IMG/VR virus record: IMGVR_UViG_2869924733_000001
Location: 1-10,216 of that record
Length of the DNA stretch: 10,216 bases
From: a virus
Lineage: Duplodnaviria > Heunggongvirae > Uroviricota > Caudoviricetes
Strand: one strand, 5' to 3'
Part shown: positions 1-10,216 of the stretch, in pieces
Numbering within the stretch: the first letter of the stretch is position 1
How the letters are laid out: every line of letters begins with the position of its first letter
The notes under the pieces: generated by a model
The model's input: only the letters and a program-made list of their open reading frames with translations
Told to the model about the DNA's origin: nothing
The model's database searches: none
Made by a program: the position numbers and the translations under genes

Positions 1-291
1 TTACGTACGCAGCCGCTCCGGTTTTTTCCACTGGTAAGTCTTTTTCTCGCTCTCCCGGTACATCTCCACGCGGCGACGGTAGGCCAGCAACTCGAGTACT
101 CTGGTGCGTATATTGCGCATATCCACGCCGTTAAGCTCAATACCGTCACGGCGCATCACCTCAGCCACCACACGCGCATAGTTCTCAGCGATAACGCTGT
201 CCGGCTGCGTGGCCTCACGTTTGCCTGCTGCCGGGCTGGCTCCGGTAATGCGGCGAATCATTTTGAGCATTTCGGCTTCTGTCATTGTCAT
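1..291 (-). CDS. Hypothetical protein, last gene of the packaging-region operon in this window
   Basis: ORF 1..315 in track begins with TTG; first ATG at 291 has GGAGG 2 nt upstream, second ATG at 285 has 8-nt spacing. Stop codon occupies window positions 1-3. No Cys, basic C-terminus, no family recognised. Confidence 0.45.
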   Translation of the reverse strand: MTMTEAEMLKMIRRITGASPAAGKREATQPDSVIAENYARVVAEVMRRDGIELNGVDMRNIRTRVLELLAYRRRVEMYRESEKKTYQWKKPERLRT

Positions 292-336
292 GGCCTCCGT
301 GGTGATGGAAAACAATGCCGTAATTGTGGCGGGTCC

Positions 337-394
337 TTCCTGGAAAATGAAACACCGGGGGTAGCCATACGCGCAAAAACGCGCTGTTTATGAG
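337..394 (+). repeat. cos-like inverted repeat copy A (palindrome TTCCTGGAA plus 45-bp core GAAACACCG-N13-GCGCAAAAACGCGCT-GTTTATGA)
   Basis: Core at 349-393 matches copy B (1076-1120, opposite orientation) at 9/9 + 15/15 + 7/8 positions with identical spacing; palindrome at 337-345. Confidence 0.4.
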
Positions 395-463
395 ATTTTT
401 TGAGGGGGTGGTTGTTGTTTAATTGTTTGTTATATCCATTTGATAACTAAGAGAAAACTGAAA

Positions 464-560
464 GCAATACAACAACCTGAGGACGTTTTTTTGATGTTAT
501 GGTTCCCAAAATACCAATTAAATCAAATGGTTTAACAAAAATACGCGGTTGTTGTATTGC
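464..560. repeat. Perfect 14-bp inverted repeat GGTTGTTGTATTGC (464-477 inverted, 547-560 direct) flanking a 69-bp AT-rich spacer; related GGTTGTTGT at 410-418
   Basis: Read directly from sequence; lies immediately downstream of the Nu1-like gene stop (568); on the minus-strand RNA the stem would be followed by a U-rich run. Confidence 0.4.
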
Positions 561-567
561 ATACTTA

Positions 568-1008
568 TTAGCTTTCCTGCTCTGTAACTACAGATTGTTG
601 CAGATGCTCACGGCGAACGGCTACGGCATGACGCCACCCAGCCAGAAAGCCAGCCATTTTATTTCGTGCCTTGCTCACATCTTCCGGCGAGTAGCCGTAA
701 ATCTGCAGACCATTATCAAATCGCTGTTCTGTTTCTTCACTGAAATACTCGTCGCGCTCTGATGAAATCAACCTGGCAACCATAATCTTTTCCAGTGCGC
801 TGGTTTCTCCGTGGTACTCAATAGCATCAAGATGACTTTTACCCATGCACCAGAATAATGTGTGTCCGATGTGATAACCGCCGGACTTTCCGCGATCCGC
901 ATCAAGATACGGCATGCCCTGTTTGGTCCATGCGCGAATAGTGGTTCTGTTGACCTTGAAATGTTCTGCTATTTCCTGCTGACTAACAAAACAATCTTTA
1001 TTATTCAT
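568..1008 (-). CDS. Nu1-type small terminase-like winged-HTH DNA-packaging protein (candidate packaging-redirecting protein)
   Basis: N-terminus FVSQQEIAEHFKVNRTTIRAWTKQGMPYL aligns with lambda Nu1 VNKKQLADIFGASIRTIQNWQEQGMPVL (recalled reference); C-terminal half unlike Nu1; ATG at 1008 with AAGG 9 nt upstream; 146 aa. Confidence 0.65.
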   Translation of the reverse strand: MNNKDCFVSQQEIAEHFKVNRTTIRAWTKQGMPYLDADRGKSGGYHIGHTLFWCMGKSHLDAIEYHGETSALEKIMVARLISSERDEYFSEETEQRFDNGLQIYGYSPEDVSKARNKMAGFLAGWRHAVAVRREHLQQSVVTEQES

Positions 1009-1060
1009 AACGTTACCTTAATAATGCGATTAAATATTAATCAAGTGGTGGTGGTGTACC

Positions 1061-1120
1061 CTTTCCCGGAAAGCGTCATAAATAGCGCGTTTTTGCGCCG
1101 CTCCCGCCCCGCGGTGTTTC
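1061..1120 (-). other. cos-like site copy B: cosN-like GC-rich core, shared 45-bp core, and palindrome CTTTCCcGGAAAG (1061-1073), about 55-110 bp upstream of the Nu1-like start
   Basis: Minus-strand reading CGGGGCGGGAGCGGCGCAAAAACGCGCTATTTATGA matches my recollection of lambda cosN and adjacent bases (CGGGGCGGCGACCTCGCGGGTTTTCGCTATTTATGA) at about 24/36 positions with the same spacing, followed by TTTCCGG as in lambda. Confidence 0.45.
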
Positions 1121-1173
1121 TGATTCTGGAAAGGACCCGTGAAAATTGGGGCGATCACCACCGTTCCGGATAC

Positions 1174-1205
1174 AAAAAAATCGCGAGACCTTGCCAGCCT
1201 CGCGA
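1174..1205 (-). terminator. Rho-independent terminator after the capsid operon
   Basis: Minus-strand RNA: stem UCGCGAG(G) / (U)CUCGCGA with about 9-nt loop followed by U7 (plus-strand A7 at 1174-1180); 14 nt downstream of the 1219..1644 ORF stop. Confidence 0.6.
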
Positions 1206-1218
1206 ACGTTCATTTCAG

Positions 1219-1644
1219 TTACTTAACAGACAGCAACAGCTTTTCATCTTCGGTCAGTCCGGCGTTGCCATCACCGGCTGCTGATCCAACACATTTCGGG
1301 CTGTGCTTTTCCATGTACGCTTCAAACAGAAAAGCCGTTTTCTTTTCCTGCATCATTGCCTGGGCATCCACGGCAGCCAGTAACGTTTGTGCATAGGTTA
1401 CTGTCATTACTTCAGAACCACACTCAATCAGCTTACTGGTGAACTCAGGGTATTTTGATGCCAGCGGTAACGCCTTGATACCCTCTATGCGCTGTTTATC
1501 ACTCTCAGCCTTTGCAGTAAGCACCGTTCGGGCTTCTGTCAGTGATGCGCCATTATTTGCGAGATTTTCCGCAAGCGTCGGGTATTTCTGCGCCTCAGGC
1601 AGTGCCATGATCAATGCTCTGGTTGAATTTGCTTTCTCAGTCAT
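1219..1644 (-). CDS. Hypothetical protein with internal tandem repeat (about 32 aa: ALPxAxKYPxL...), in capsid operon
   Basis: ATG at 1644 with GGTGA 4-5 nt upstream; 14-nt gap after gpD-like stop; two similar segments ALPEAQKYPTLAENLANNGASL / ALPLASKYPEFTSKLIECGSEV. Confidence 0.55.
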   Translation of the reverse strand: MTEKANSTRALIMALPEAQKYPTLAENLANNGASLTEARTVLTAKAESDKQRIEGIKALPLASKYPEFTSKLIECGSEVMTVTYAQTLLAAVDAQAMMQEKKTAFLFEAYMEKHSPKCVGSAAGDGNAGLTEDEKLLLSVK

Positions 1645-1658
1645 AAATCACCACAAAA

Positions 1659-1988
1659 TTATTGCCCTAAAGGCTGCACGGAAATACCGGAACCAACAAA
1701 AGCCGACACTTTTTTCTCGAACGTGTCCGCTGTATCAGGCCAGTTAATTTCATCGATATTAAAAACCCCGCACTTATAAACCTGTGCGCGGTTTTTTGTG
1801 GCCGTGTTAATGTCCGATATGGTCAGATACACCGCCTTACCGGGTGTACCGTCCCACTCAACCATCAGGCCCGCGCCGTTCTGCATCAGCGGAGTTCTCG
1901 CTTTAATTTCTCTGGCACTGGCAAAACAGGCCAGCGTGCTGACCAGTTCCTGCGTGCCGGAAAGTAATTGCGTGTAAGGTGTTGGCAT
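1659..1988 (-). CDS. Head decoration protein, lambda gpD family
   Basis: 109 aa against lambda gpD 110 aa; conserved blocks TPLM, W-G-T, Y-K-x-G-x-F, WP, AF-x-G-x-IS at matching spacing (recalled lambda D sequence); AGGGGA RBS 6 nt upstream of ATG. Confidence 0.8.
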   Translation of the reverse strand: MPTPYTQLLSGTQELVSTLACFASAREIKARTPLMQNGAGLMVEWDGTPGKAVYLTISDINTATKNRAQVYKCGVFNIDEINWPDTADTFEKKVSAFVGSGISVQPLGQ

Positions 1989-1998
1989 ACGATCCCCT

Positions 1999-3054
1999 TT
2001 ATTTCACTTCGACGGTAACAAAGCGACCAATATCCACGGGTACTGGCTGCGGGGCGCTGTGCGTCTGCACGTATTCAATCGCCGGATCGCCCGGTACGAT
2101 ATAATTTTTCGGGTAGTACATCCCCTCAGAAAACCCCTCGCGTGCCGCGTCCTGATCCATGATGGCACCATAAGCAACAAGGCCTTTATTTTCGGTATTG
2201 CCGAAAACCATCATGTTTTGTTTCAGGAAATATTGCTGCTGCCCGTCTTCGTCGTCATAACGACCGGAATAAACCACGAGCGCCACATCACCGAGATACC
2301 CCTTGAAGCTGACAACACCGCCCAAATCTTTTAGCGCAAGTTCAAGTGACGAGTTTGAACCGCGGCGCGTGTCCAGGAGTTCGCGGAATCGACGGAACGA
2401 GCGCAAAATACGCCAGGCTTCGCCACCCATGACGATAATATTTACCGTACCTTTGGAAAAATCAGCGTAAGCCTCAATGTCGCTTATCGGATCAAACGTC
2501 TCGGCATCCTGTTTTGACCATTCTTTCCCGCCAGCCTGTGTAATGTGATTGGTTGCGGGTAATCCCCAGTCAATTTCATAACGCTCGATGCCTTCGCCTT
2601 CGATAACGTTCCTGCCTTTTGTGATGGCATTGACCGCCAGCCATTCAATACGTGCTTTGATGGCAGTGATCTGTTTTTTCTGGCTGTCGTGAACCATTTT
2701 TACGCGGCGTAGTGCCGGGGAAGACTGACCATTGCCGATCTGTTCTCCAGCCATGCGCATGATTGTTTTAGTGGGATCAATAACGTGTTTGGGCTTCATA
2801 TAACCCGGCGTGAAAGTGTTCGTTGTAAAACCTTTGTCACGCATAACCTGACTGCCTGACATTGGTGAACAAAACGGACTCATGACCACGTTTTCAATGT
2901 CCAGCGTATCAAGCGCAATATCTCGCGTACTGAACGTGGCGATATTCGGAAAAAACAGCGTCGTAAAGAGCGGATTAAATTTAAATTCCGGCACATCTTC
3001 GCGCCCGATATTTTTCAGTAGCGTTGGTGTGCTTACCAGTTGCAGCGCTGTCAT
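1999..3054 (-). CDS. Major capsid protein, lambda gpE family
   Basis: 351 aa; long collinear similarity to lambda gpE along the whole length (e.g. FKFNPLF, TFTPGYMKPKH, NHITQAGGKEWSKQDAETFDPISDIEAYA, LDTRRGSNSSLE, DVALVVYSG, YPKNYIVPGDPA, QTHSAP), roughly 45-50 percent identity by eye. Confidence 0.9.
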   Translation of the reverse strand: MTALQLVSTPTLLKNIGREDVPEFKFNPLFTTLFFPNIATFSTRDIALDTLDIENVVMSPFCSPMSGSQVMRDKGFTTNTFTPGYMKPKHVIDPTKTIMRMAGEQIGNGQSSPALRRVKMVHDSQKKQITAIKARIEWLAVNAITKGRNVIEGEGIERYEIDWGLPATNHITQAGGKEWSKQDAETFDPISDIEAYADFSKGTVNIIVMGGEAWRILRSFRRFRELLDTRRGSNSSLELALKDLGGVVSFKGYLGDVALVVYSGRYDDEDGQQQYFLKQNMMVFGNTENKGLVAYGAIMDQDAAREGFSEGMYYPKNYIVPGDPAIEYVQTHSAPQPVPVDIGRFVTVEVK

Positions 3055-3260
3055 TACTCACCCCCATGAGGCTGATTCATGCCAAGCGCAGCGCGTAAAT
3101 GACTGCGTACCATCCAGCCGACTGACGGCTTCACCATGCACAACGGATCAAGGCCGACTTTTTTCCCTGCCTCTGCGTTCTCCTCAAAGCGCGCATTAAG
3201 TGCGGCGATAATATCGGGGCTGATGTACACGGATACACCGCCCGGCTTCTGTGTTCCCAT
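3054..3260 (-). CDS. Small hypothetical protein (68 aa) upstream of and translationally coupled to the capsid gene
   Basis: ATG at 3260 preceded by GAGGAA at 9 nt; its TAA stop overlaps the gpE-like ATG (TAATG). Track ORF extends to ATG 3326, which lacks an RBS. Confidence 0.45.
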   Translation of the reverse strand: MGTQKPGGVSVYISPDIIAALNARFEENAEAGKKVGLDPLCMVKPSVGWMVRSHLRAALGMNQPHGGE

Positions 3261-3312
3261 AAATGAGATTCCTCTTTGACTAAAAAACAAACATAACGAA
3301 AAGTCAGCCATG

Positions 3313-3342
3313 ATTTTAATCATCATTGCATTTTTTGCAATG
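3313..3342 (-). promoter_or_regulatory. Candidate sigma70 promoter of the capsid operon with overlapping palindromes
   Basis: Minus strand: -35 TTGCAA (3335-3340), 16-bp spacer, -10 TAAAAT (3313-3318); -35 embedded in inverted repeats CATTGCA-N5-TGCAATG (3324-3342) and TTGCA-A-TGCAA (3335-3345). Confidence 0.35.
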
Positions 3343-3439
3343 CAATTGACTGTTATTGCAAATCATGAAATCATCATGCCGTGGTTTTAATCCTTGTACC
3401 ACAGAGTCATTCAGCATTAATCACGTTAGCGGTATGAAA

Positions 3440-3471
3440 TCCCCCGGAACCTCATCCCGGGGGATTTTTTT
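3440..3471 (+). terminator. Plus-strand intrinsic terminator hairpin (half of a bidirectional pair)
   Basis: 8-bp stem UCCCCCGG / CCGGGGGA, 9-nt loop, followed by T7 (3465-3471). Confidence 0.45.
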
Positions 3472-3475
3472 GCGC

Positions 3476-3503
3476 ACAAAAAAGCCGGGAAAAATCCCGG
3501 CTT
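3476..3503 (-). terminator. Minus-strand intrinsic terminator ending the replication/SSB operon
   Basis: 9-bp stem AAGCCGGGA / UCCCGGCUU with 4-nt loop, followed on the minus strand by UUUUGU; 15 nt downstream of the SSB stop. Confidence 0.55.
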
Positions 3504-3517
3504 CTGTCACTCGTTGC

Positions 3518-3940
3518 TTAAAACGATATGTTATCCCCGTACGGGGCATCATTTCCCGCCTGTTGTTTTGCCCTGTTCAGTGCGTCAGTAGCCTGGCCCT
3601 GCTGGCCTTTTTTGCCGCCCGGTCGCGCCGTTCGCGCACTGATTACGCTGTCTGCGATAACCTGCCAGCCCTGCCGCGTTTCGCCGTTCTGGCCTGTCCA
3701 CTGGCTTACCTGTATGTTACCCGCCACGCTCACCAGTTCGCCTTTGTGGTGTCTGGCCAGTGCGTCGGCCTGTCTGCCAAACGCCAGGACGGATAACCAC
3801 ATCGTCGCCGTTCCGTCATCGGCCTGGCTGCACGGCAGGGGAACCGCCATACTCGCCATCGCCATTTGTGTCCCTTTGCTGGTGGTCTTTAACTGCGGGT
3901 CAGCCACCAGCCGCCCGTAAGCCGCTATCTGTGCTGTCAT
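3518..3940 (-). CDS. ssb: Single-stranded DNA-binding protein (SSB-like, OB fold)
   Basis: N-terminal GRLVADPQLKTTSKGTQMA resembles the SSB motif; conserved W and G-x-V positions; Gly/Gln-rich linker; acidic C-terminal tip DAPYGDNISF comparable to DDDIPF of E. coli SSB; ATGA overlap with upstream ORF. Confidence 0.7.
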   Translation of the reverse strand: MTAQIAAYGRLVADPQLKTTSKGTQMAMASMAVPLPCSQADDGTATMWLSVLAFGRQADALARHHKGELVSVAGNIQVSQWTGQNGETRQGWQVIADSVISARTARPGGKKGQQGQATDALNRAKQQAGNDAPYGDNISF

Positions 3941-4188
3941 GCTGTCACCTCTCCGGTTTTAACGTTGATGGTTGTCACCTGTTCCGCTTCCGCAATTTCC
4001 CGCTCAGTCAGCGTGGCAAAGTTTGCCGCCGCCGTGGTCATGAATGCGCTTATCAGTTCGGGATGTGCTTTCGCGTATCCTTCCCCGGCATGGCGGTCTA
4101 TCGTTCTGATTGCCACCTTTAAGGCGCGCTCTGTCATGTCTAATGCGCGATATTTTGGCGCTGTCTTATCTCTGGTTTTTCTGGTCAT
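3937..4188 (-). CDS. Hypothetical protein (83 aa), first gene after the putative origin, coupled to ssb
   Basis: ATG at 4188 with GGGGAG 9 nt upstream; stop overlaps SSB start (ATGA). Confidence 0.5.
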   Translation of the reverse strand: MTRKTRDKTAPKYRALDMTERALKVAIRTIDRHAGEGYAKAHPELISAFMTTAAANFATLTEREIAEAEQVTTINVKTGEVTA

Positions 4189-4197
4189 TCCTCACTG

Positions 4198-4391
4198 CTC
4201 CCCACTTTTACTACCCACTTTTTGAAATTACCCAACGTCTCCCCACTTCTTTTTTTTGTGATTCTAACGTGATGTTTTTCAATGTATTTTTTATTCCCCA
4301 CTTTTTGGGGTATATACAGGTGAGAAAGTGGGGAATCGCGTTTCAATTTTGTTAAATTCCCCGCACTCCCCACTTTTACTACCCACTTTTT
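4198..4391. repeat. Iteron array, putative replication origin: 26-bp perfect direct repeat CTCCCCACTTTTACTACCCACTTTTT (4198-4223 and 4366-4391) plus further CCCACTT copies
   Basis: Seven copies of CCCACTT(T) (six direct, one inverted at 4327-4333) in about 195 bp; inverted pair CCCCACTTT / AAAGTGGGG flanks AT-rich GGTATATACAGG; immediately 3' of the replication protein gene. Confidence 0.5.
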
Positions 4392-5805
4392 ACAGTGGGC
4401 GCACGTCATCACCGTCAATAGCAATAACGCCATCACCTTCCAGCTTGTACAGCCAGCGCCGGAAGTGTTTCATCTCATACCCCAGCTTTTTCATATCATC
4501 GCGCAACAACGGAATTGTGCATTTATCGCCGCGCTGTGTGCGTGAACGGATACAGCCCCATAGCGCGGCATGATTCTCCGTCTTGTTCCCGGCTTCCTCG
4601 ATGCGCTCCAGTTCAACGGGTGGGCGCGGTTTATCCACAACCACCAGCGACGTGATTAACTCCCCGTCAGTGTCGGTAAAAAGCTCCACCACACGTAAAT
4701 CGTATGCAGCCTCTTTCAGTTCCTCCGCGTCCTTCATTTTGGTGCAGGAGATAACCAGGGCTTCACTGTCTGCACCTTCACGGCGAATACGGTATTCAGC
4801 GTCCAGAGATGCACGAAATGCACTGGAACCACGCGCTCCCTTTGTTTCATCCTTGCCGGAATGGTGAACCACCAGCACCGTGGACCCTGTGCGTCGTTTC
4901 AGTTCGTCACATCCACGGATAAACGCCCCCATATCCCGCGCGTCATTTTCATCATTACCGCCAAAACACCGCGCCAGCGTATCCAGAATAATCATGCGTA
5001 CCGGTTTACCCGTTTCCCTTTCAACCTGGCGGGAAGCGATGACCATTTCATCGACATCAAGCGGGACTGCCGGAAAAATCGGGCGGTTTACCAGGTACAG
5101 ATTTTCCACCCGTTTATCATTAACGATTTCCCATGCCTTGATACGGCGGGGGACACCAATGCCACCTTCACCGACAACATACATCACCGAACCATGCGCC
5201 ACCCTGCGGCCTCCCCAGTGGCGACCCGTGGCAACATGACACGCCCAGGAACACGCGAGGAACGATTTATAGGAACCGCTCGCGCCGTATGTGCTACACA
5301 ATGAATTAGCCGGAATCACGCCTTTAACGACATAATCAAGCTGTGTGTCGTACCCTGCAGATCCAATGCTCATTGGTAGCGTGGTTTTTCGCTGGCTGTA
5401 TTGCTCGTCAGTAAGAATTTCCCCGCGCTCTGCCTGTTCGCGGATCCGTTGCAGGTAGTCGTGCCAGTTCTCCAGCTTCTGGCTGTGCATTCCATCAGGG
5501 TAATAATTCGCATCCCGTACACCTGCCGCCGCCAGCTTTTGCCCGATAGCATTAATATTTGACGGCTTGATGTGGCCTGCCTTGTACAGCCGGACACAAT
5601 AGCGACCATCGTCGATAATTTTCAGGTCTGCCAGTTCGTCAAGCTGGCTGTCTCCAAGCCATACAGGCGGAACATTGTCGCCAGCAAGTCGCCCGTCCTG
5701 CTCCTGCCATTGTTTCGCGTGCGCCCAGGCATCACTACCCGCAAAAATAATGACTTCGGTCATTTTGTCGTGTGGCTGTTTTTTTAAGTTCGGTGCCAGT
5801 TTCAT
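4390..5805 (-). CDS. Replication protein: primase/helicase-type, RecA-fold (AAA_25 / RepA-like) ATPase with N-terminal toprim-like region and C-terminal putative DNA-binding region
   Basis: Walker A YGASGSYKSF, Walker B VRMIILDTLA, and LVVHHSGKDETKGARGSSAFRASLDAEY typical of RepA/DnaB-like helicases; ATG at 5805 with AGGGG 9 nt upstream; ATGA overlap with upstream ORF. Confidence 0.85.
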   Translation of the reverse strand: MKLAPNLKKQPHDKMTEVIIFAGSDAWAHAKQWQEQDGRLAGDNVPPVWLGDSQLDELADLKIIDDGRYCVRLYKAGHIKPSNINAIGQKLAAAGVRDANYYPDGMHSQKLENWHDYLQRIREQAERGEILTDEQYSQRKTTLPMSIGSAGYDTQLDYVVKGVIPANSLCSTYGASGSYKSFLACSWACHVATGRHWGGRRVAHGSVMYVVGEGGIGVPRRIKAWEIVNDKRVENLYLVNRPIFPAVPLDVDEMVIASRQVERETGKPVRMIILDTLARCFGGNDENDARDMGAFIRGCDELKRRTGSTVLVVHHSGKDETKGARGSSAFRASLDAEYRIRREGADSEALVISCTKMKDAEELKEAAYDLRVVELFTDTDGELITSLVVVDKPRPPVELERIEEAGNKTENHAALWGCIRSRTQRGDKCTIPLLRDDMKKLGYEMKHFRRWLYKLEGDGVIAIDGDDVRPL

Positions 5806-6101
5806 TTTGTGCCCCTGAATGCGTTAATCATGTTTTTCATTTTCTGAATATTTGCCCGTGCCTTTGCGTTGCTGGTGGGCTGTCTGCGTGGTGTGGCCTG
5901 TACCAGCGAAAAATCACGCCGGAACTGATAAACAGGCATCACGCAGTCATAGCCGTACCCATCACGGCGGTAAGTAACGCACCGTCCCGCCACGCTTTTA
6001 ATCGTTACCGTGCCGCCGTAGTTATCCCGGAAAATATCGCCGGGGCGGATTTCAGGCCGAGCGGGGCCGCTGGCAGTAAAGCCAGAATTTTTCTGTTTCA
6101 T
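5802..6101 (-). CDS. Hypothetical protein (99 aa), replication operon
   Basis: GAGGAA RBS 9 nt upstream of ATG 6101; stop overlaps primase start. Confidence 0.5.
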   Translation of the reverse strand: MKQKNSGFTASGPARPEIRPGDIFRDNYGGTVTIKSVAGRCVTYRRDGYGYDCVMPVYQFRRDFSLVQATPRRQPTSNAKARANIQKMKNMINAFRGTK

Positions 6102-6106
6102 GGTTT

Positions 6107-6316
6107 TTATTCCTCTGCGCGGGTCTTGTCGTGTATTTCCATAACCGCGTTTAATTCATCAATAACCGGGGTTAACAGAGTGCTGAAAGCAGAAAATAAA
6201 TCCCCCCCCTGTTCGGCATGAACTTCGGTTAATTTAATTAATACCGCTTTCATTTCCAGTGCCCGGTTTAATGCATTCTCAGAATGAATAAGAACATCGA
6301 AAGGGATTTCATTCAT
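6107..6316 (-). CDS. Hypothetical protein (69 aa), replication operon; contains a G8 tract
   Basis: GGAGG 9-10 nt upstream of ATG 6316; coding-strand G8 at 6202-6209 encodes QGGD. Confidence 0.5.
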   Translation of the reverse strand: MNEIPFDVLIHSENALNRALEMKAVLIKLTEVHAEQGGDLFSAFSTLLTPVIDELNAVMEIHDKTRAEE

Positions 6317-6569
6317 GGCTCACCACCTCCGGGAATTTTCTTCTGTAACGCGCCTCTGCAACATATTCCGCATAGTCCGACGCAATATTGAGAATCTCCG
6401 CACCCTCTGACCTGTAGCCACTGGTATTGATAAGAAAAAATGCGGCTTTTATCATGTCAGCAACGCCCAACAATGCGTCTGCTTCGTGTTCCGGTGCGCC
6501 ATCAAATTCCTGTTTCAGGGCATTAAAACGATCATCACGCATAACCCCCCCCATTTTCACAATCAGCAA
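6309..6569 (-). CDS. Hypothetical protein (up to 86 aa; start uncertain: 6569, 6554 or 6542)
   Basis: ORF from track; candidate starts overlap the end of the upstream Icd-like ORF and a G8 tract (6545-6552); 8-nt overlap with downstream ORF start. Confidence 0.4.
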   Translation of the reverse strand: MLIVKMGGVMRDDRFNALKQEFDGAPEHEADALLGVADMIKAAFFLINTSGYRSEGAEILNIASDYAEYVAEARYRRKFPEVVSHE

Positions 6570-6969
6570 TCAGAATGGCTTTGGCCTCATTCAGTGCCAT
6601 ATCAGCGGTAAGCTGTGCGTAGGCCAGCGAATGCGGGATTATTGCCCCTGTATATTCCGGCTCTCTGGTAATGTGTTTTTCTGCGGTTGCTGCCGTGTGT
6701 GAAATATCAATCAGCGCGCGCATCAGTGTTTTGATGGCTTCGGCGGCTGCGTCCGGACGGGTGTTATTGCACATGGTGCACCCCTGACGAATACGGGCGG
6801 CGAATACCATCACACAGCCATCAGGAGATTGCTGGCGTGCTTCCTGTTCGCTGGTGGCCTCAATGGTAATCACGCGCGGTTGTGCTGTGCTCAGGGCGAT
6901 AAAACGCCAGATGTATTTATTCAGGTTGTGCGAGTCCCGCCCTTGCGGGTGTGTGGTATGATTTCTCAT
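6535..6969 (-). CDS. Icd-like protein (P4-type host cell division inhibitor family, tentative), first gene of the leftward operon
   Basis: ATG at 6969 with GAGG 5 nt upstream; N-terminus MRNHTTHPQGRDSHNLNKYIWRF...FAARIRQG resembles Icd-like proteins of P4-type prophages (from memory); it is the 3' part of the spurious 476-aa track ORF. Confidence 0.45.
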   Translation of the reverse strand: MRNHTTHPQGRDSHNLNKYIWRFIALSTAQPRVITIEATSEQEARQQSPDGCVMVFAARIRQGCTMCNNTRPDAAAEAIKTLMRALIDISHTAATAEKHITREPEYTGAIIPHSLAYAQLTADMALNEAKAILIADCENGGGYA

Positions 6970-7064
6970 AGCTACCTCGATACTCTCGTTATCGTTGGTG
7001 GTTAGAAGCCCGTTGGTGTTGGTAGCACCTGCGGGCTTTGTCTTTTCATCGATTACCTCAATAA

Positions 7065-7148
7065 AGGTGTCAGCCACTATACTAGTAACAGGTGTCAGCC
7101 ACGTCAATAGTGTTTTTCCATTTTCTTGTGTGTATACTGTCAGCCACC
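7065..7148. promoter_or_regulatory. Divergent promoter/operator region with three copies of (A)GGTGTCAGCCAC
   Basis: Repeats at 7065-7077, 7090-7102 and 7137-7148; leftward promoter -35 TTGACG (7102-7107) / -10 TAGTAT (7079-7084), 17-bp spacer, with repeats in the spacer and at +1; rightward -10 TATACT (7133-7138) abutting repeat 3. Confidence 0.55.
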
Positions 7149-7168
7149 TAATAACAAGGAAATCAGAT

Positions 7169-7348
7169 ATGGCAACGAAAGCAGTTAATGGAAAATCCAA
7201 AAAACTTGAGGCACGAGTCCCCCATGCAATAGCTGACGCTGTAGAAAATTTAAAGGAAGAAGGTGAAAGCACTGGGCAATTTATCGTTTCGGCACTTGAA
7301 GGCGAGATCAAACGCCGCCAGCGTCGCAAGGCCAAAGAGCAGGAGTAA
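7169..7348 (+). CDS. Ribbon-helix-helix (CopG/Arc-like) DNA-binding protein, candidate repressor of the switch
   Basis: 59 aa; AAGGAA RBS 7 nt upstream of ATG; beta-strand KKLEARVP then two helices (HAIADAVENLKEEG, STGQFIVSALEGEI), basic tail; only convincing plus-strand gene. Confidence 0.6.
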   Translation: MATKAVNGKSKKLEARVPHAIADAVENLKEEGESTGQFIVSALEGEIKRRQRRKAKEQE

Positions 7349-7405
7349 CCATCACCAGCGCCGTGGTGTGAGTAACTACGGCGCATTGCTATGCAGGACA
7401 ACACA

Positions 7406-7558
7406 ATGACCGATAAAGAATTGACCAAAACATTATCACCGGCACGGAAAAGACGGCGCAGAAAGATAGAACATGAATCAGAAAGATTCGCGCCATGTGC
7501 TTTTGCCCTCGAGCAATTCCTTAAAGAGTACAGGGAAAAGCGCTCATTGCAGGTATGA
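7406..7558 (+). CDS. Small basic ORF (50 aa), possibly co-transcribed with the RHH gene
   Basis: ATG 7406 with AGGA 7 nt upstream; protein MTDKELTKTLSPARKRRRRK...; below the track length cut-off; followed by a plus-strand terminator about 100 nt downstream. Confidence 0.3.
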   Translation: MTDKELTKTLSPARKRRRRKIEHESERFAPCAFALEQFLKEYREKRSLQV

Positions 7559-7658
7559 CAACGAACTGAACCAGACTGATTGCATTGCCCACCAGCCGCA
7601 AATGTGGCATTGTTGGCGATGCTCATGCGTTGGGGATAACGCGAAATTTGTGTCGCAG

Positions 7659-7686
7659 GGCCACCGTGACTGGTGGCCTTTTCTTT
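7659..7686 (+). terminator. Plus-strand intrinsic terminator (end of RHH / small ORF transcript)
   Basis: 7-bp GC-rich stem GGCCACC / GGTGGCC, 6-nt loop, followed by TTTTCTTT. Confidence 0.55.
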
Positions 7687-7739
7687 ACCTGTTATCCGGC
7701 AATAGTGGCGCTTCTTCACACAGTTGATATAATTCCCCT

Positions 7740-7810
7740 GCACTGATCCAATTTTTTCGCAGCAGGTTAATTGTTCGCAAGGGCGCTCCGGTAACGGGGC
7801 GCTTTTTGTT
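7740..7810 (+). ncRNA. Candidate small RNA (about 70 nt) between a consensus extended -10 promoter and an intrinsic terminator, convergent with alpA
   Basis: TGaTATAAT at 7725-7733 (-10 hexamer matches consensus 6/6); terminator stem GCGCTCCG / CGGGGCGC with GTAA loop (7783-7802) plus TTTTTGTT (7803-7810); no ORF in between. Confidence 0.35.
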
Positions 7811-7828
7811 ATGTGCATCGCTCCCCCC

Positions 7829-8041
7829 TTACGCCGTTTGCGTCCTGCGAGTGGATGCAAGATAAGCATCGAGATCAGAGCGCATATACAGCACTTTGCG
7901 CCCCAGCTTATGGAAAGGGATTTTTTCTTTACCAGTACACGCCCAGTTAGCAAGAGTCTGGACACTTACCCCCAAATGCTCGGCGGCTTCTTTGCGGGTC
8001 ATTTTTTCTTGAGAATTGATTACGTTCACAAGTAACTCCAC
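7829..8041 (-). CDS. alpA: AlpA / excisionase-family HTH DNA-binding protein
   Basis: MTRKEAAEHLGVSVQTLANW...KIPFHKLGRKVLYMRSDLDAYL matches the excisionase/AlpA HTH pattern; track start is GTG 8041 (AGGT RBS), alternative ATG at 8002. Confidence 0.75.
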   Translation of the reverse strand: MELLVNVINSQEKMTRKEAAEHLGVSVQTLANWACTGKEKIPFHKLGRKVLYMRSDLDAYLASTRRTQTA

Positions 8042-8174: not shown

Positions 8175-8795
8175 TTATGCGTACTCTGGCGGGATCACCA
8201 GTTCTGAGTTTTTGTACTTTTTGTCAGGTGGTGGCGGCGGGGCTAGTTTTTCACTTTTTATCCAGCACTTGATTGTTTCCTCGCTTATCCGGCCCTCATA
8301 TCGACGCGACAGCTTCGCAATCATTTTTGTTTTGGATAGTGCTGGTTCTTTCTTCCATGTGGCTTTCATGATGGCGACTATCTCATCATGTAAATAGTGG
8401 CGGGGACCGGAGGCGGCTTCACTTCTTCTTCTTTTGATAACACCATCAGATATTAATCTAATAACTTTGCCACCACCTTTTGAGGCTATACAGGCTCTTT
8501 TGTATACCCATGAAAGATCCTCAGCAGTATTTTTATATCCAAGTAGCTCTAGTATTAAGATGGATTTCAGAAATACATTAGCACTATGACCTATGTTTAT
8601 CTCCCCTGTTTTGTCTAACGCTAAATATCCTTCCTTATCAATCCTTGCTGCTATTCTTTTCCTTTCTGCTTTTCTATAATATTTAAATTTATCTTTCAAT
8701 TCATACACATGCTCGCTCATTTCCTTTTCGACTTGCTCAAGATAATCATATAATTCAATTCTTGTATCATCATCCACTACATCCCAAACTTTCAT
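8175..8795 (-). CDS. Hypothetical protein (206 aa), AT-rich 5' half, translationally coupled to the integrase; candidate accessory/cargo gene
   Basis: ATG at 8795 overlaps the integrase TGA (ATGA); codons for about the first 110 aa lie in visibly AT-rich DNA (8460-8795) while the 3' half is of ordinary composition; proline run PPPPP near C-terminus; no family recognised. Confidence 0.6.
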   Translation of the reverse strand: MKVWDVVDDDTRIELYDYLEQVEKEMSEHVYELKDKFKYYRKAERKRIAARIDKEGYLALDKTGEINIGHSANVFLKSILILELLGYKNTAEDLSWVYKRACIASKGGGKVIRLISDGVIKRRRSEAASGPRHYLHDEIVAIMKATWKKEPALSKTKMIAKLSRRYEGRISEETIKCWIKSEKLAPPPPPDKKYKNSELVIPPEYA

Positions 8796-10216
8796 TTAGA
8801 CGATACCTCTAAATTTTTGTTTATGATTTTGAAAATTAATTGGCGTTTTTCATCATCACTCATGCTCTCCAGTGCAGAAAGCAATTGCGCATCAATAGAT
8901 TTTTTACTCTCCACCAGCCCGGCATGTTCCAGAATTGCCCGTTCTATCCGTGACGCTGGCTCCAGCAGTTCATCAGCACCAAAATGTAAATACCCCTGCG
9001 TTACGTCAGCACTTCTCATAGTGCGGTGATTCATCAGGCGCTTGAGGGTGTAATTACCCACGCCCACCAGTTCGGCAACCGTTCCGAACGTCCGGCGCGC
9101 ATCGTGCCATTTGAATGGTACAGGGGAGAGCATTTCATCGTTCGACTCTGGGACGGTAGCCGCGCTTATCCGGTCTATGATGTGCCGTGTTTCCTGAATC
9201 ACTCCCTTTGCTCCAGGAAACACCAGTACATCATCAGCGTTTTTTATTTTCAGCCTGCGGCGGAACATTTCCCGCAACGTATCGGTGATCGGTAGCTCGA
9301 GCGGATCCCCGTTTTTCGTGGTATCTATCCAGAAAAAACGACCGCCCATATTCACGCGATCCCACGTAAGGCCAAAAATTTCTGATTTTCTCAGTCCGGT
9401 AAAAAGTGCCATTTCCACGGCATCACATACCGTCACCGCTATATCATCCCTTTCCTGTTCGCCCTGGTCACGTACAGCAGCTACAGCAGCAAACCAGCGG
9501 GGAAAATCATGCAGGCGGATACGTTCCGTTTTTCTTACCGTTCCGTGCCACTGTCGTTTGGTACTCAGTACCAGCGTCGGCGGATCCGGTAAAAGAGTAT
9601 TACCCGCATCATCACGGTAATGATCATGCGCAAACCGACACACGGCACGCAGCGCACGCGCCCATAAATCGGCCTGTGCCTTGCTTCCTGTGCCAACCCC
9701 AGCCCGTAACGTGGTTTTATCAGCACCGAACCATACAGCCCCGTTTGTGACAGCCTTATGCCGCTGTTCCACCCGTTCGCGGGTAATACTGGCGAGGGTA
9801 TGGGCCATCCAGTCACCGGAATAATTCTGTAATATGCTGCGGTACTGTTTTTCTGTGGCGGGTTTCAGGCGGTGGCCACGATTTTTTATGTAGGCTTCAA
9901 GCGCCTCATTCAGCGTTATCATGGCCTTGTTGTTCGTGCGCTTCGCTATGTTCGGGTTTTTCCCCGTTGTGGCGACCTCTCCAAGGAGTTCCATAGCTTT
10001 AGCCCTGGCATTGTCCACACTCAGATCGGGAAAACGCCCCAGCGTTGCACGAATAAATTTTCCGTTACGCTTACGGGAAATGCAGAAACTTTTCACACCA
10101 GACGAACCCACACGGACACGCAGCCCGTTAACCTCCGTATCACCATATTCGACCTGTCCATGTTCCGGCGTTGGCAGTTCTGCAATTTTTACTTTAGAGA
10201 ATCTGAATAATTTCAC
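8792..10216 (-). CDS. int: Tyrosine recombinase / integrase (P4-type, N-terminal arm-binding domain); 5' end at window edge
   Basis: N-terminal arm-type domain (KIAELPTPEHG...GLRVRVGSSGVKSF...RATLGRFPDLSVDNARAKA); catalytic-domain motifs LRKSE, HDARRT, NHRT...GYLH; ORF starts with GTG at the last window base, so the true start may lie beyond. Confidence 0.9.
   Translation of the reverse strand: MKLFRFSKVKIAELPTPEHGQVEYGDTEVNGLRVRVGSSGVKSFCISRKRNGKFIRATLGRFPDLSVDNARAKAMELLGEVATTGKNPNIAKRTNNKAMITLNEALEAYIKNRGHRLKPATEKQYRSILQNYSGDWMAHTLASITRERVEQRHKAVTNGAVWFGADKTTLRAGVGTGSKAQADLWARALRAVCRFAHDHYRDDAGNTLLPDPPTLVLSTKRQWHGTVRKTERIRLHDFPRWFAAVAAVRDQGEQERDDIAVTVCDAVEMALFTGLRKSEIFGLTWDRVNMGGRFFWIDTTKNGDPLELPITDTLREMFRRRLKIKNADDVLVFPGAKGVIQETRHIIDRISAATVPESNDEMLSPVPFKWHDARRTFGTVAELVGVGNYTLKRLMNHRTMRSADVTQGYLHFGADELLEPASRIERAILEHAGLVESKKSIDAQLLSALESMSDDEKRQLIFKIINKNLEVSSK

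Follow-up and report, generated by a model that had tools for sequence, protein, structure and literature searches.

The 10,216-nucleotide stretch of DNA analysed here (the window) very probably covers nearly all of a 10.76-kb phage-inducible chromosomal island (PICI), a classical Gram-negative element of the EcCICFT073 type, located in tRNA-Ile2(CAU) of an Escherichia/Shigella-like chromosome. Its late gene set is genuine and not new: the EcCICFT073 family is well studied, and the window is a typical representative of it. In the source record (CP027027.1), the 10.76-kb island is delimited by 19-bp att repeats (CGACCAAGCGATTATGAGT) in the tRNA gene, tRNA(CAU) is rebuilt at attR, the integrase gene adjoins the displaced 3' half of tRNA-Ile2(CAU), and both flanks consist of housekeeping genes, with no head or tail genes in either. 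The PICI core is recognizable by sequence: an integrase, an AlpA-like regulator, a RepA-type helicase with an adjacent iteron origin, and a single-strand DNA-binding protein (SSB; Table 1). In family and profile searches, no window ORF matched portal, protease, TerL, tail or lysis families, and portal, protease and TerL are absent from window and chromosomal flanks alike. A sequence-only reading had proposed the satellite nature of the element, this core gene set, and the lack of portal, protease and large terminase; all of this holds for the complete island and the DNA beside it, where tail genes are absent too.

Table 1 Features of the window, with the evidence for each assignment
Feature	Position	Strand	Basis
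Last ORF, 94 aa, conserved PICI protein	1..285	-	phrog_1561 1e-48
cos2, second inverted cos-like site without Rpp-type cosB	331..394 (about)	+	position and orientation as EcCICFT073 cos2
Rpp (redirecting phage packaging), RppA type, 146 aa	568..1008	-	phmmer vs PDB 6HLK/6HN7 RppC 1.5e-33
cos1	1030..1138	-	cos alignment (EcCICFT073 cos1, lambdoid phages)
Rpp-type cosB motif ACACCACCACCACTTGATTAATATTTAA in cos1	1057..1030	-	cos alignment
Predicted 12-nt cohesive end GGGCGGGAGCGG in cos1	1109..1098	-	cos alignment
cosQ-like GGGTCCTTTCCAG in cos1	1138..1126	-	cos alignment
Intrinsic-terminator-like hairpin	1181..1205	-	10-bp stem, 6 GC pairs, then TTTTTTT
Free-standing Nu3-like scaffold homolog, 141 aa, c1501 position	1219..1644	-	phrog_53, BLASTP
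Lambda gpD-type head decoration protein, 109 aa, c1500 homolog	1659..1988	-	Pfam HDPD 3.6e-8; phrog_49 1e-18
Lambda gpE-type major capsid protein, 351 aa, c1499 homolog	1999..3054	-	Pfam Phage_cap_E 5.1e-48; phrog_29 5e-97
68-aa ORF (c1498 position)	3054..3260	-	phrog_3255 6e-25
SSB, 140 aa	3518..3940	-	Pfam SSB 6e-16
Origin of replication	4198..4392	n/a	iterons TCCCCACTTTT / ACTACCCACTTTT
RepA-type replicative helicase, 471 aa	4390..5805	-	Pfam AAA_25 2.5e-43; phrog_2850 4e-250
DUF4222 gene	6101..5802	-	precedes RepA-type helicase gene
AlpA-like HTH regulator or excisionase	7829..8041	-	Pfam HTH_17 6e-13; phrog_66 7e-11
206-aa ORF	8175..8795	-	low-GC patch, 0.37-0.38
Tyrosine integrase, 474 aa	8792..10216	-	Pfam Phage_integrase 4.7e-14, Arm-DNA-bind_3 6e-13

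On the minus strand, the late region runs from orf68 through the gpE-type capsid, gpD-type decoration and Nu3-like genes to the terminator, cos1, rpp, the inverted cos2 and the last ORF, with the previously listed genes, terminator and cos-like site all where they had been placed. The block is colinear with and homologous to EcCICFT073 c1498-c1503, with identities of 65% for orf68, 64.5% for the major capsid protein (MCP), 49% for the decoration protein, 31% for the 141-aa ORF (p141) and its CFT073 counterpart p137, 84% for Rpp (c1503/RppA) and 71% for the last ORF; the SSB is 68% identical. The late genes had been thought to mark an unusual satellite, a view contradicted by this gene-by-gene homology in matching order. 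The co-occurrence of gpE, gpD and Nu3-like homologs with a cos site would also suit the head region of a lambdoid prophage, whether ordinary or decayed. That origin, to which we assign next to no probability, is refuted by the housekeeping flanks and the att repeats delimiting 10.76 kb; all genes are, moreover, intact and conserved, and the order E-D-Nu3-like-cos-rpp, correctly described beforehand as non-lambdoid, is unlike Nu1-A-W-B-C/Nu3-D-E in lambda (vB_EcoM-705R4 was also compared).

The capsid block is a compact operon that shows Shine-Dalgarno sequences as well as translational coupling and is closed by the terminator-like hairpin, of which EcCICFT073 has an equivalent. Its first ORF, coupled to the capsid gene via an ATGA overlap, has its most likely start at 3260, which gives 68 aa and is served by a good Shine-Dalgarno sequence, and not at 3326 as first proposed; an AF2 model of it was uninformative (pLDDT 60). 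The earlier gpE and gpD assignments both hold. The MCP matches PDB 3BQW, a crystal structure of an EcCICFT073-type capsid protein, at 2e-152 and lambda gpE (7VI9) at 2e-87, with 45% identity to the latter protein over residues 23-350. The decoration protein scores 34 bits against an HDPD cutoff of 29.1 and matches lambda gpD PDB entries at ~5e-9. The element had been said to lack a scaffold, which appears inaccurate: the 141-aa ORF matches phrog_53 (head maturation protease) at profile positions 502-578 of 583 (1e-8) and, in BLASTP, residues 416-537 of a 538-aa gpC-like S49 protease (36% identity, E=7e-9), the same region that p137 matches at 1e-5. With lambda Nu3 itself giving E=0.1, these moderate scores point to a Nu3-like scaffold homolog.

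Downstream, the cos-like site lies ~100 bp upstream of the 146-aa HTH ORF, whose ATG is at bp 102 counted from the first cohesive-end base, the same spacing as published for PICI-C (PMC9026076). This ORF had been read as a Nu1-like packaging protein; it does share an N-terminal wHTH with lambda Nu1, but the likeness is limited to those ~40 aa, and the protein is better named Rpp. Within cos1, the cosQ-cosN segment is identical to the cos of the prophage in E. coli TUM9812 at 48/57 positions versus 35/58 for EcCICFT073 cos1, whereas the cosB segment agrees with EcCICFT073 at 56/71 positions versus 31/71 for phages. Thus, on these alignments, cos1 is mosaic: its cosQ/cosN is of a non-lambda, helper type and its cosB of the RppA type. 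Together with the Nu3-like 141-aa ORF and the second, inverted cos site, this arrangement is among the details added by this analysis. The TerS of the TUM9812 prophage and lambda Nu1 share 52% identity.

The iterons of the origin occur as direct and inverted copies immediately downstream of the helicase gene. Counting against the preferred assignment, the AlpA-like protein matches HTH_17 and not Pfam Phage_AlpA, and the replicase is a RepA/AAA_25 helicase where EcCICFT073 has a D5-type primase. The 206-aa ORF, which gave no match in family searches, is possibly accessory cargo.

The sequence-only reading had also suggested that the capsid genes remodel helper capsids. The window is unlikely to represent a novel satellite type that builds or remodels these, for instance as small satellite-sized heads on the helper portal, although several observations favour this reading: the complete shell kit of E, D and Nu3-like homologs in one tight operon, the selection acting on it, and the distinctness of its MCP. 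The block is under purifying selection, which is strong for the MCP (dN/dS 0.05-0.13; 0.15-0.2 for the decoration protein, ~0.3 for p141 and ~0.18 for Rpp). The highest identity of any phage protein to the satellite MCP is <=49% (50,697 records), compared with 64% between PICI alleles, which suggests an old MCP lineage separate from those of phages. In addition, all reported marked EcCICFT073 derivatives carried c1501::tetA or c1499::cat (PMC6092414 Table 1), and head size was therefore never measured with an intact block. However, the same block is found in the model Gram-negative PICI, EcCICFT073 of E. coli CFT073 (Fillol-Salom 2018, PMC6092414; 2019, PMC6739421), and in most reference elements: 21/29 reference GN-PICIs have a capsid gene (PMC10111431), and SatelliteFinder includes a 'capsid morphogenesis' gene among the core components of PICIs (PMC10085698). 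EcCICFT073 encodes both capsid c1499 and decoration protein c1500, yet its packaged DNA is phage-sized, and deletion of either gene leaves transfer and lambda interference unaffected (PMC6092414); a c1498-c1501::cas9 replacement still transduces (PMC10530653).

Conservation of a block that transfer does not need could instead reflect an anti-phage or interference module, poisoning lambdoid capsids by co-assembly or acting as a decoy for capsid-sensing systems. PICIs have been described as carrying anti-phage immunity systems (PMC10085698), and the MCP has diverged from phage MCPs (45-49% identity). We nevertheless regard this as quite improbable: the c1499 and c1500 deletions did not relieve lambda interference (although Rpp could hide any such relief), c1503 alone among individually expressed EcCICFT073 genes blocks lambda (PMC6739421), and a PADLOC scan limited to the neighbouring small ORFs gave no match. 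Slightly less probable again is the idea, put forward in PMC10111431, that the capsid genes are a backup from helper-embedded ancestors, replacing an interrupted helper late gene and of little use in tRNA-integrated copies. In keeping with it, the nearest relative at the DNA level among complete E. coli genomes (95.7% identity, window positions 3-7810) is embedded in terL of the lambdoid-head TUM9812 prophage; but this relative breaks terL, and not E or D, so that the capsid genes would be the wrong backup. Copies integrated in tRNA genes or in the chromosome also keep the block intact and under purifying selection, and the apparent age and distinctness of the MCP lineage argue against it as well.

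For the window as an EcCICFT073-type PICI, a life cycle can be proposed in which induction, helper identity, Rpp-TerS binding and packaging are carried over from EcCICFT073 experiments. A lambdoid helper would act through AlpA to induce the island, which would excise and then replicate from its own origin. Rpp would form a heterodimer with the helper's Nu1-family TerS, as in the described Rpp-TerS mechanism (PMC6739421). This complex would ignore the phage cosB and bind the PICI cosB beside cos1, and helper TerL would therefore cut PICI concatemers and package them into helper-made, phage-sized heads; four island units would amount to ~43 kb. The natural helper is probably of the TUM9812 lambdoid-head prophage type, because the cosQ/cosN of cos1 is non-lambda and resembles that of such prophages. 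The capsid, decoration and scaffold genes are dispensable for transfer in EcCICFT073. As a best guess, their shell subunits would assemble on the helper portal and protease, and the block would therefore duplicate what the helper's E, D and Nu3 already provide. In EcCICFT073 the whole block is deletable with transfer kept, an observation that speaks against a shell-subunit role.

Among known systems, EcCICFT073 shares with the window element orf68, c1499, c1500, a ~140-aa Nu3-like ORF, terminator, cos1 with its conserved RppA-type cosB motif, rppA (c1503), inverted cos2 and last ORF, as well as DUF4222, SSB, 83-aa ORF and Icd/YlcI-like genes. It differs in integrase and att (adjoining phoQ, versus tRNA-Ile2 here), in a D5-type primase in place of the RepA/AAA_25 helicase, a kind of replication-module swap that occurs among relatives, and in its PerC gene, which the window element lacks. 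The capsid-block alleles have diverged (MCP 64%, decoration protein 49%, Nu3-like 31%), and the window cosQ/cosN is non-lambda, with predicted cohesive end GGGCGGGAGCGG versus GGGCGGCGACCT in EcCICFT073. Among helper-embedded PICIs (HE-PICIs; Barcia-Cruz et al. 2023, PMC10111431), the TUM9812 terL element shares the replication and late modules, whereas the window element occupies a chromosomal tRNA gene and has an unrelated integrase. The capsid-forming PICIs (cf-PICIs, for example, EcCIEDL933; Alqurainy et al., 10.1101/2022.09.08.507074) have the same int-alpA-rep organisation and satellite-encoded capsid protein(s), but encode their own TerS, TerL, HNH, portal, protease and head-tail connectors and produce their own small capsids; the window element has none of these genes. 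The lambda head module is represented by homologs of E (45% identity), D and the Nu3 region of C, a Nu1-like wHTH and a cosQ/cosN-like sequence, in an order different from Nu1-A-W-B-C/Nu3-D-E, with no A, W, B or protease domain and with a Nu1 homolog that lacks the TerL-binding C-terminus. Finally, Ccm of SaPIbov5, a Gram-positive PICI with small capsids, is likewise encoded by the satellite and homologous to the major capsid protein of the helper, but belongs to another protein family and another host, and redirects capsid size, whereas the EcCICFT073 capsid homolog showed no such effect.

Read on the opposite strand, positions 10001–20216 of CP027027.1 (assembly GCA_002943855.1) are identical to the window, in which almost every real gene lies on the minus strand. 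In that record, a 19-bp direct repeat, CGACCAAGCGATTATGAGT, occurs in tRNA(CAU) sequence at 9802 and 20565, 10,763 bp apart; the copy at 20565 lies within an intact tRNA, and a displaced 3′ half of the tRNA ends with the one at 9802. The 10.76-kb element is therefore inserted in a tRNA-Ile2-type (CAU) gene. No tRNA gene was found in the window itself by ARAGORN, the tRNA lying ~320 bp outside window position 1. On the side upstream of int are siderophore-interacting-protein, PadR, chemoreceptor and aminotransferase genes, and past the last ORF come tRNA(CAU), a UDG-family glycosylase gene and IS4, followed by rpoD, dnaG and rpsU. The sequence-only reading was right in taking the element for a satellite: it is an att-bounded island with housekeeping flanks. 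Portal, TerL and tail genes beside the window, which would mark an ordinary prophage head region, were sought and housekeeping genes found instead, so that this objection does not apply; portal, protease, TerL and tail genes are absent both within the island and beside it, and no window ORF matched portal, TerL, tail or lysis families in Pfam, PHROGs or NCBIfam. The housekeeping flanks and att sites likewise led us to reject a prophage remnant.

The organization is that of a classical Gram-negative PICI: a tyrosine integrase stands at one end of an att-bounded island of the ~10–20 kb class, an AlpA-type regulator lies downstream of int in the same orientation as the rest of the island, the element has its own replicase with an ori directly downstream, and it carries a capsid homolog gene and a TerS homolog/Rpp (redirecting phage packaging protein) adjoining a cos site. 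Membership of the capsid-forming PICIs (cf-PICIs) was rejected, TerL, portal, protease and head–tail connector genes being undetected in the window. P4-like satellites carry Psu, Sid, Delta, Ash and alpha primase, whereas the capsid-related genes of the window are of the gpE and gpD types; P4-like membership was also rejected, as none of these P4 families was matched by window ORFs in Pfam or PHROGs. The window element is an ordinary member of the known EcCICFT073-type PICI family, to which some modest new annotation details can be added.

Features of the window, with coordinates, strand and the basis of each assignment
Feature	Position	Strand	Basis or remark
Tyrosine integrase	10216..8792	-	Phage_integrase 4.7e-14, Arm-DNA-bind_3 6e-13 (Pfam)
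206-aa ORF	8795..8175	-	Between int and AlpA-like gene; low GC
AlpA-like HTH, 70 aa	8041..7829	-	HTH_17 6e-13; phrog_66 7e-11
Small Icd-, YlcI- and DUF4222-type genes	Between HTH and helicase
RepA-type helicase	5805..4390	-	AAA_25 2.5e-43
Iteron array (ori)	4198-4392
SSB	3940..3518	-
Late region as flagged by the sequence-only reading	3326..1	-
orf68, 68 aa	3260..3054	-	Good Shine-Dalgarno; stop overlaps next start as ATGA
gpE-type major capsid protein (MCP)	3054..1999	-	Phage_cap_E 5.1e-48; phrog_29 5e-97
gpD-type decoration protein (Dec)	1988..1659	-	HDPD 3.6e-8, above curated cutoff; lambda gpD structures ~5e-9
p141, 141-aa ORF	1644..1219	-
Terminator hairpin	1205..1181	-
cos1	1138-1030	-	Alignment
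cosQ-like GGGTCCTTTCCAG of cos1	1138..1126	-
Predicted cohesive end GGGCGGGAGCGG of cos1	1109..1098	-	7/12 positions match lambda GGGCGGCGACCT
ACACCACCACCACTTGATTAATATTTAA of cos1 (RppA-type cosB motif)	1057..1030	-	Kept in EcCICFT073 cos1, absent from phage cos
Rpp, 146-aa HTH protein	1008..568	-	RppC structures
cos2	~331-394	+	Without Rpp-type cosB, like EcCICFT073 cos2
Last ORF, 94 aa	285..1	-

Outside the late region, the 206-aa ORF occupies a patch with a GC content of 0.37–0.38, against ~0.5 elsewhere in the window; it has no match in Pfam, PHROGs, NCBIfam or PADLOC and, at the site where PICIs usually carry cargo, may be an accessory gene. The 94-aa, 68-aa and 83-aa ORFs similarly returned nothing from PADLOC, NCBIfam or Pfam. 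The 70-aa AlpA-like protein is not matched by Pfam Phage_AlpA, which does match in relatives. A 476-aa ORF at 6535–7965 (minus strand) was dismissed as an artefact: it spans several small real genes (Icd-like, phrog_2512-type) and overlaps a plus-strand YlcI/YnfO gene at 7169–7348.

The late region is colinear with that of EcCICFT073, the model Gram-negative PICI of the CFT073 chromosome, in which a 68-aa ORF, a 351-aa MCP, a 111-aa Dec, a 137-aa hypothetical protein and cos1 are followed by a 144-aa protein, an inverted cos2, a 93-aa ORF and then phoQ. Identities between the two elements are 65% for orf68, 64.5% for MCP, 49% for Dec, 31% for p141 and the 137-aa protein, 84% for Rpp and the 144-aa protein, and 71% for the last ORF, and both cos sites lie in the same places and orientations. 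The gpE-type capsid protein, gpD-type decoration protein, terminator, cos-like site and HTH protein noticed in the sequence were all confirmed, the first two by Phage_cap_E and HDPD. However, their combination had been taken for an unusual, new type of satellite, and it is instead what PICIs of the E. coli type have as their textbook late region: 21 of the 29 Gram-negative reference PICIs carry a capsid gene (PMC10111431), and the SatelliteFinder PICI model counts ‘capsid morphogenesis’ among its five core components (PMC10085698). As a discovery the flagged gene set carries little weight, being already known.

The protein read as Nu1-like belongs to a different family. Its residues 1–135 align to residues 1–137 of RppC (PDB 6HLK; 6HN7 is the complex with TerS) at 1.5e-33 in phmmer, whereas terminase small subunits in the PDB gave only 0.2–0.5, on the wHTH. 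The BLASTP alignment with lambda Nu1 is limited to residues 8–47 (40 aa), the phrog_57 match is confined to residues 2–46, and Pfam Phage_Nu1 gave no match at E ≤ 0.01; identity as a full-length lambda Nu1 small terminase was rejected, since that family is unmatched and only the wHTH aligns. The protein shares the features of the Rpp family, namely a length within 139–154 aa, an N-terminal TerS-like wHTH, a C-terminal dimerisation region without a TerL-binding tail, and a gene ~100 bp downstream of a PICI cos with a non-phage cosB. On this sequence evidence it is an Rpp, close to RppA of EcCICFT073 (c1503; PMC6739421). As published, Rpp heterodimerises with helper TerS to form a complex that recognises the PICI cosB and not the phage cosB, by which the phage is blocked and TerL is recruited to the PICI; this use of Rpp and cos in packaging has already been solved structurally and genetically.

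Since the exact lambda cosN pattern occurs in the window at chance level (8 versus 7.96 expected), the parts of cos were assigned by alignment with the cos sites of lambda, EcCICFT073 and lambdoid prophages, the motif CGCTATTTATGA being common to cos1 and the aligned sites. Counted from the first base of the predicted cohesive end, the rpp ATG is at bp 102, a spacing also reported for PICI-C. In its cosQ–cosN segment, cos1 is identical at 48/57 positions to the cos of the lambdoid-head, contractile-tail prophage of E. coli TUM9812, compared with 35/58 for EcCICFT073 cos1 and 30/57 for the lambda-type cos of a CFT073 prophage, whereas its cosB segment matches EcCICFT073 at 56/71 positions and either phage at 31/71. 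As aligned, cos1 is a mosaic of a non-lambda lambdoid-type cosQ/cosN and an RppA-type cosB, and its halves thus seem to follow separate partners, the helper's TerL in one case and the satellite's Rpp in the other. Similar cos sequences lie directly upstream of terS in vB_EcoM-705R4 and SerU-LTIIb. With 52% identity to lambda Nu1, the TerS of the TUM9812 prophage falls in the family targeted by Rpp. From these comparisons we infer that the natural helper is probably a lambdoid phage of the TUM9812 cos type. The pairing of an RppA-type cosB with a non-lambda cosQ/cosN points to a different class of lambdoid helper and to separate evolution of the cos halves. In the SerU-LTIIb record (KU052038.1), a CDS annotated ‘NU1-like protein’ at 6461–6679, between the LT-IIb toxin genes and terS, aligns to cos1 and is probably a cos site, not a gene.

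Within the capsid block (orf68, MCP, Dec and p141), MCP and lambda gpE share 45% identity across residues 23–350, and PDB 3BQW (351 aa), a crystal structure of a capsid protein of the EcCICFT073 type, matches MCP at E=2e-152. A single-sequence AF2 prediction of orf68 gave two helices at pLDDT 60 and was not usable. The absence of portal, protease domain and TerL noted from the sequence holds, but p141 is a candidate for the scaffold gene said to be missing with them. This protein matches the extreme C terminus of phrog_53 (head maturation protease; profile positions 502–578 of 583, 1e-8), and its residues 12–140 align by BLASTP to 416–537 of the 538-aa gpC-like S49 protease of the TUM9812 prophage (36% identity, E=7e-9), across repeated ‘IMALPEAxxxxxLA...MTVxxAKTLLAA’ units and the C-terminal tail. 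The EcCICFT073 137-aa ORF matches the same protease region at 1e-5. In lambda gene C, the corresponding part is the nested scaffold gene nu3; alignment of p141 with lambda Nu3 itself is weak (E=0.1), and a search of the PDB gave no meaningful match. Some relatives have an 80-aa protein in the p141 slot, with a similar C-terminal tail (...LLQSIK versus ...LLLSVK). We read p141 as a free-standing, putative Nu3-like scaffold homolog. The gene at the c1501 position can accordingly be annotated as such, which would make the conserved block a coherent E–D–scaffold trio.

All six late genes are intact in each relative examined. Against close relatives, dN/dS is 0.05–0.13 for MCP, ~0.15–0.2 for Dec, ~0.3 for the Nu3-like ORF and ~0.18 for Rpp; the capsid gene is therefore constrained at least as much as rpp, the gene of proven function. 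No phage MCP among 50,697 records is more than 49% identical to the window MCP, whereas the two PICI alleles share 64%, which argues for an old satellite lineage and against recent capture. The closest phage MCPs (48.6% identical), accompanied by a similar cos, are in ON470624.1 and related vB_EcoM-...R records; these ‘complete genome’ records are only 19–27 kb, with head genes in lambda order, which is oddly short for such a head module. The PICI allele carried by the window is rare: 23 of the 5426 complete genomes of E. coli have it, whereas 2010 genomes match elsewhere in the element. Among complete E. coli genomes, the nearest relative is in TUM9812 (NZ_CP128926.1, 7652–20189; 95.7% identity over window 3–7810), where it splits the large-terminase gene of the prophage in two and carries an integrase unrelated to that of the window (E=0.015); this helper-embedded PICI configuration has been described (PMC10111431). 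In three other relatives, L005, L006 and L012 (9151–9735), a 194-aa Pfam Phage_Nu1 protein replaces the 146-aa Rpp beside an identical last ORF, and L012 (7040–7860) has ProQ- and PerC-family genes instead of the capsid block. The late region is therefore modular.

The best-supported account of the window element is the EcCICFT073 paradigm. The helper would induce the island through AlpA, the island would replicate from its own ori, Rpp with helper TerS would retarget terminase to cos1, and phage-sized heads would take up PICI concatemers. Four island units, each 10.76 kb long, amount to 43 kb. Lambda heads accept roughly 38–51 kb, a range within which 43 kb falls. Exact fractions of the helper genome are required of cos islands (PMC10530653).

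For the capsid block, the published results on EcCICFT073 are negative, the block being dispensable for lambda and phi80 transfer. By locus-tag numbering, c1498–c1501 is the four-gene block and c1501 the 137-aa ORF. Deletion of c1499 (capsid) or c1500 (decoration) left lambda interference and transfer unchanged (PMC6092414), and a c1498–c1501::cas9 replacement still transduces (PMC10530653). The packaged EcCICFT073 DNA was all phage-sized (PMC6092414); a rival idea is that the capsid trio makes small heads conditionally. The marked derivatives in the transfer and packaging assays were all c1501::tetA, c1499::cat or c1498–c1501::cas9 (PMC6092414 Table 1; PMC10530653 Fig. 5). As each disrupted c1499 or c1501, it appears, on the same numbering, that head composition and size have never been examined with the block intact.

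Full-text searches of open-access papers found none that assigns a function to PICI capsid and decoration genes. Our preferred guess is that the trio (E, D and Nu3-like) is a source of redundant shell subunits, which would be assembled onto the portal and protease of the helper; other proposals are that it acts by capsid poisoning or as a decoy, or that it has a backup role for helper-embedded relatives. That the four genes form a working, satellite-owned shell kit, yielding chimeric heads of possibly different size on the helper portal and protease under particular conditions, we consider unlikely; on that reading, the function would have gone unnoticed because the marked derivatives all disrupted c1499 or c1501. 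The block is strongly constrained and present in most enterobacterial PICIs; were it such a kit, classical PICIs would be intermediate between elements that purely steal capsids and cf-PICIs.
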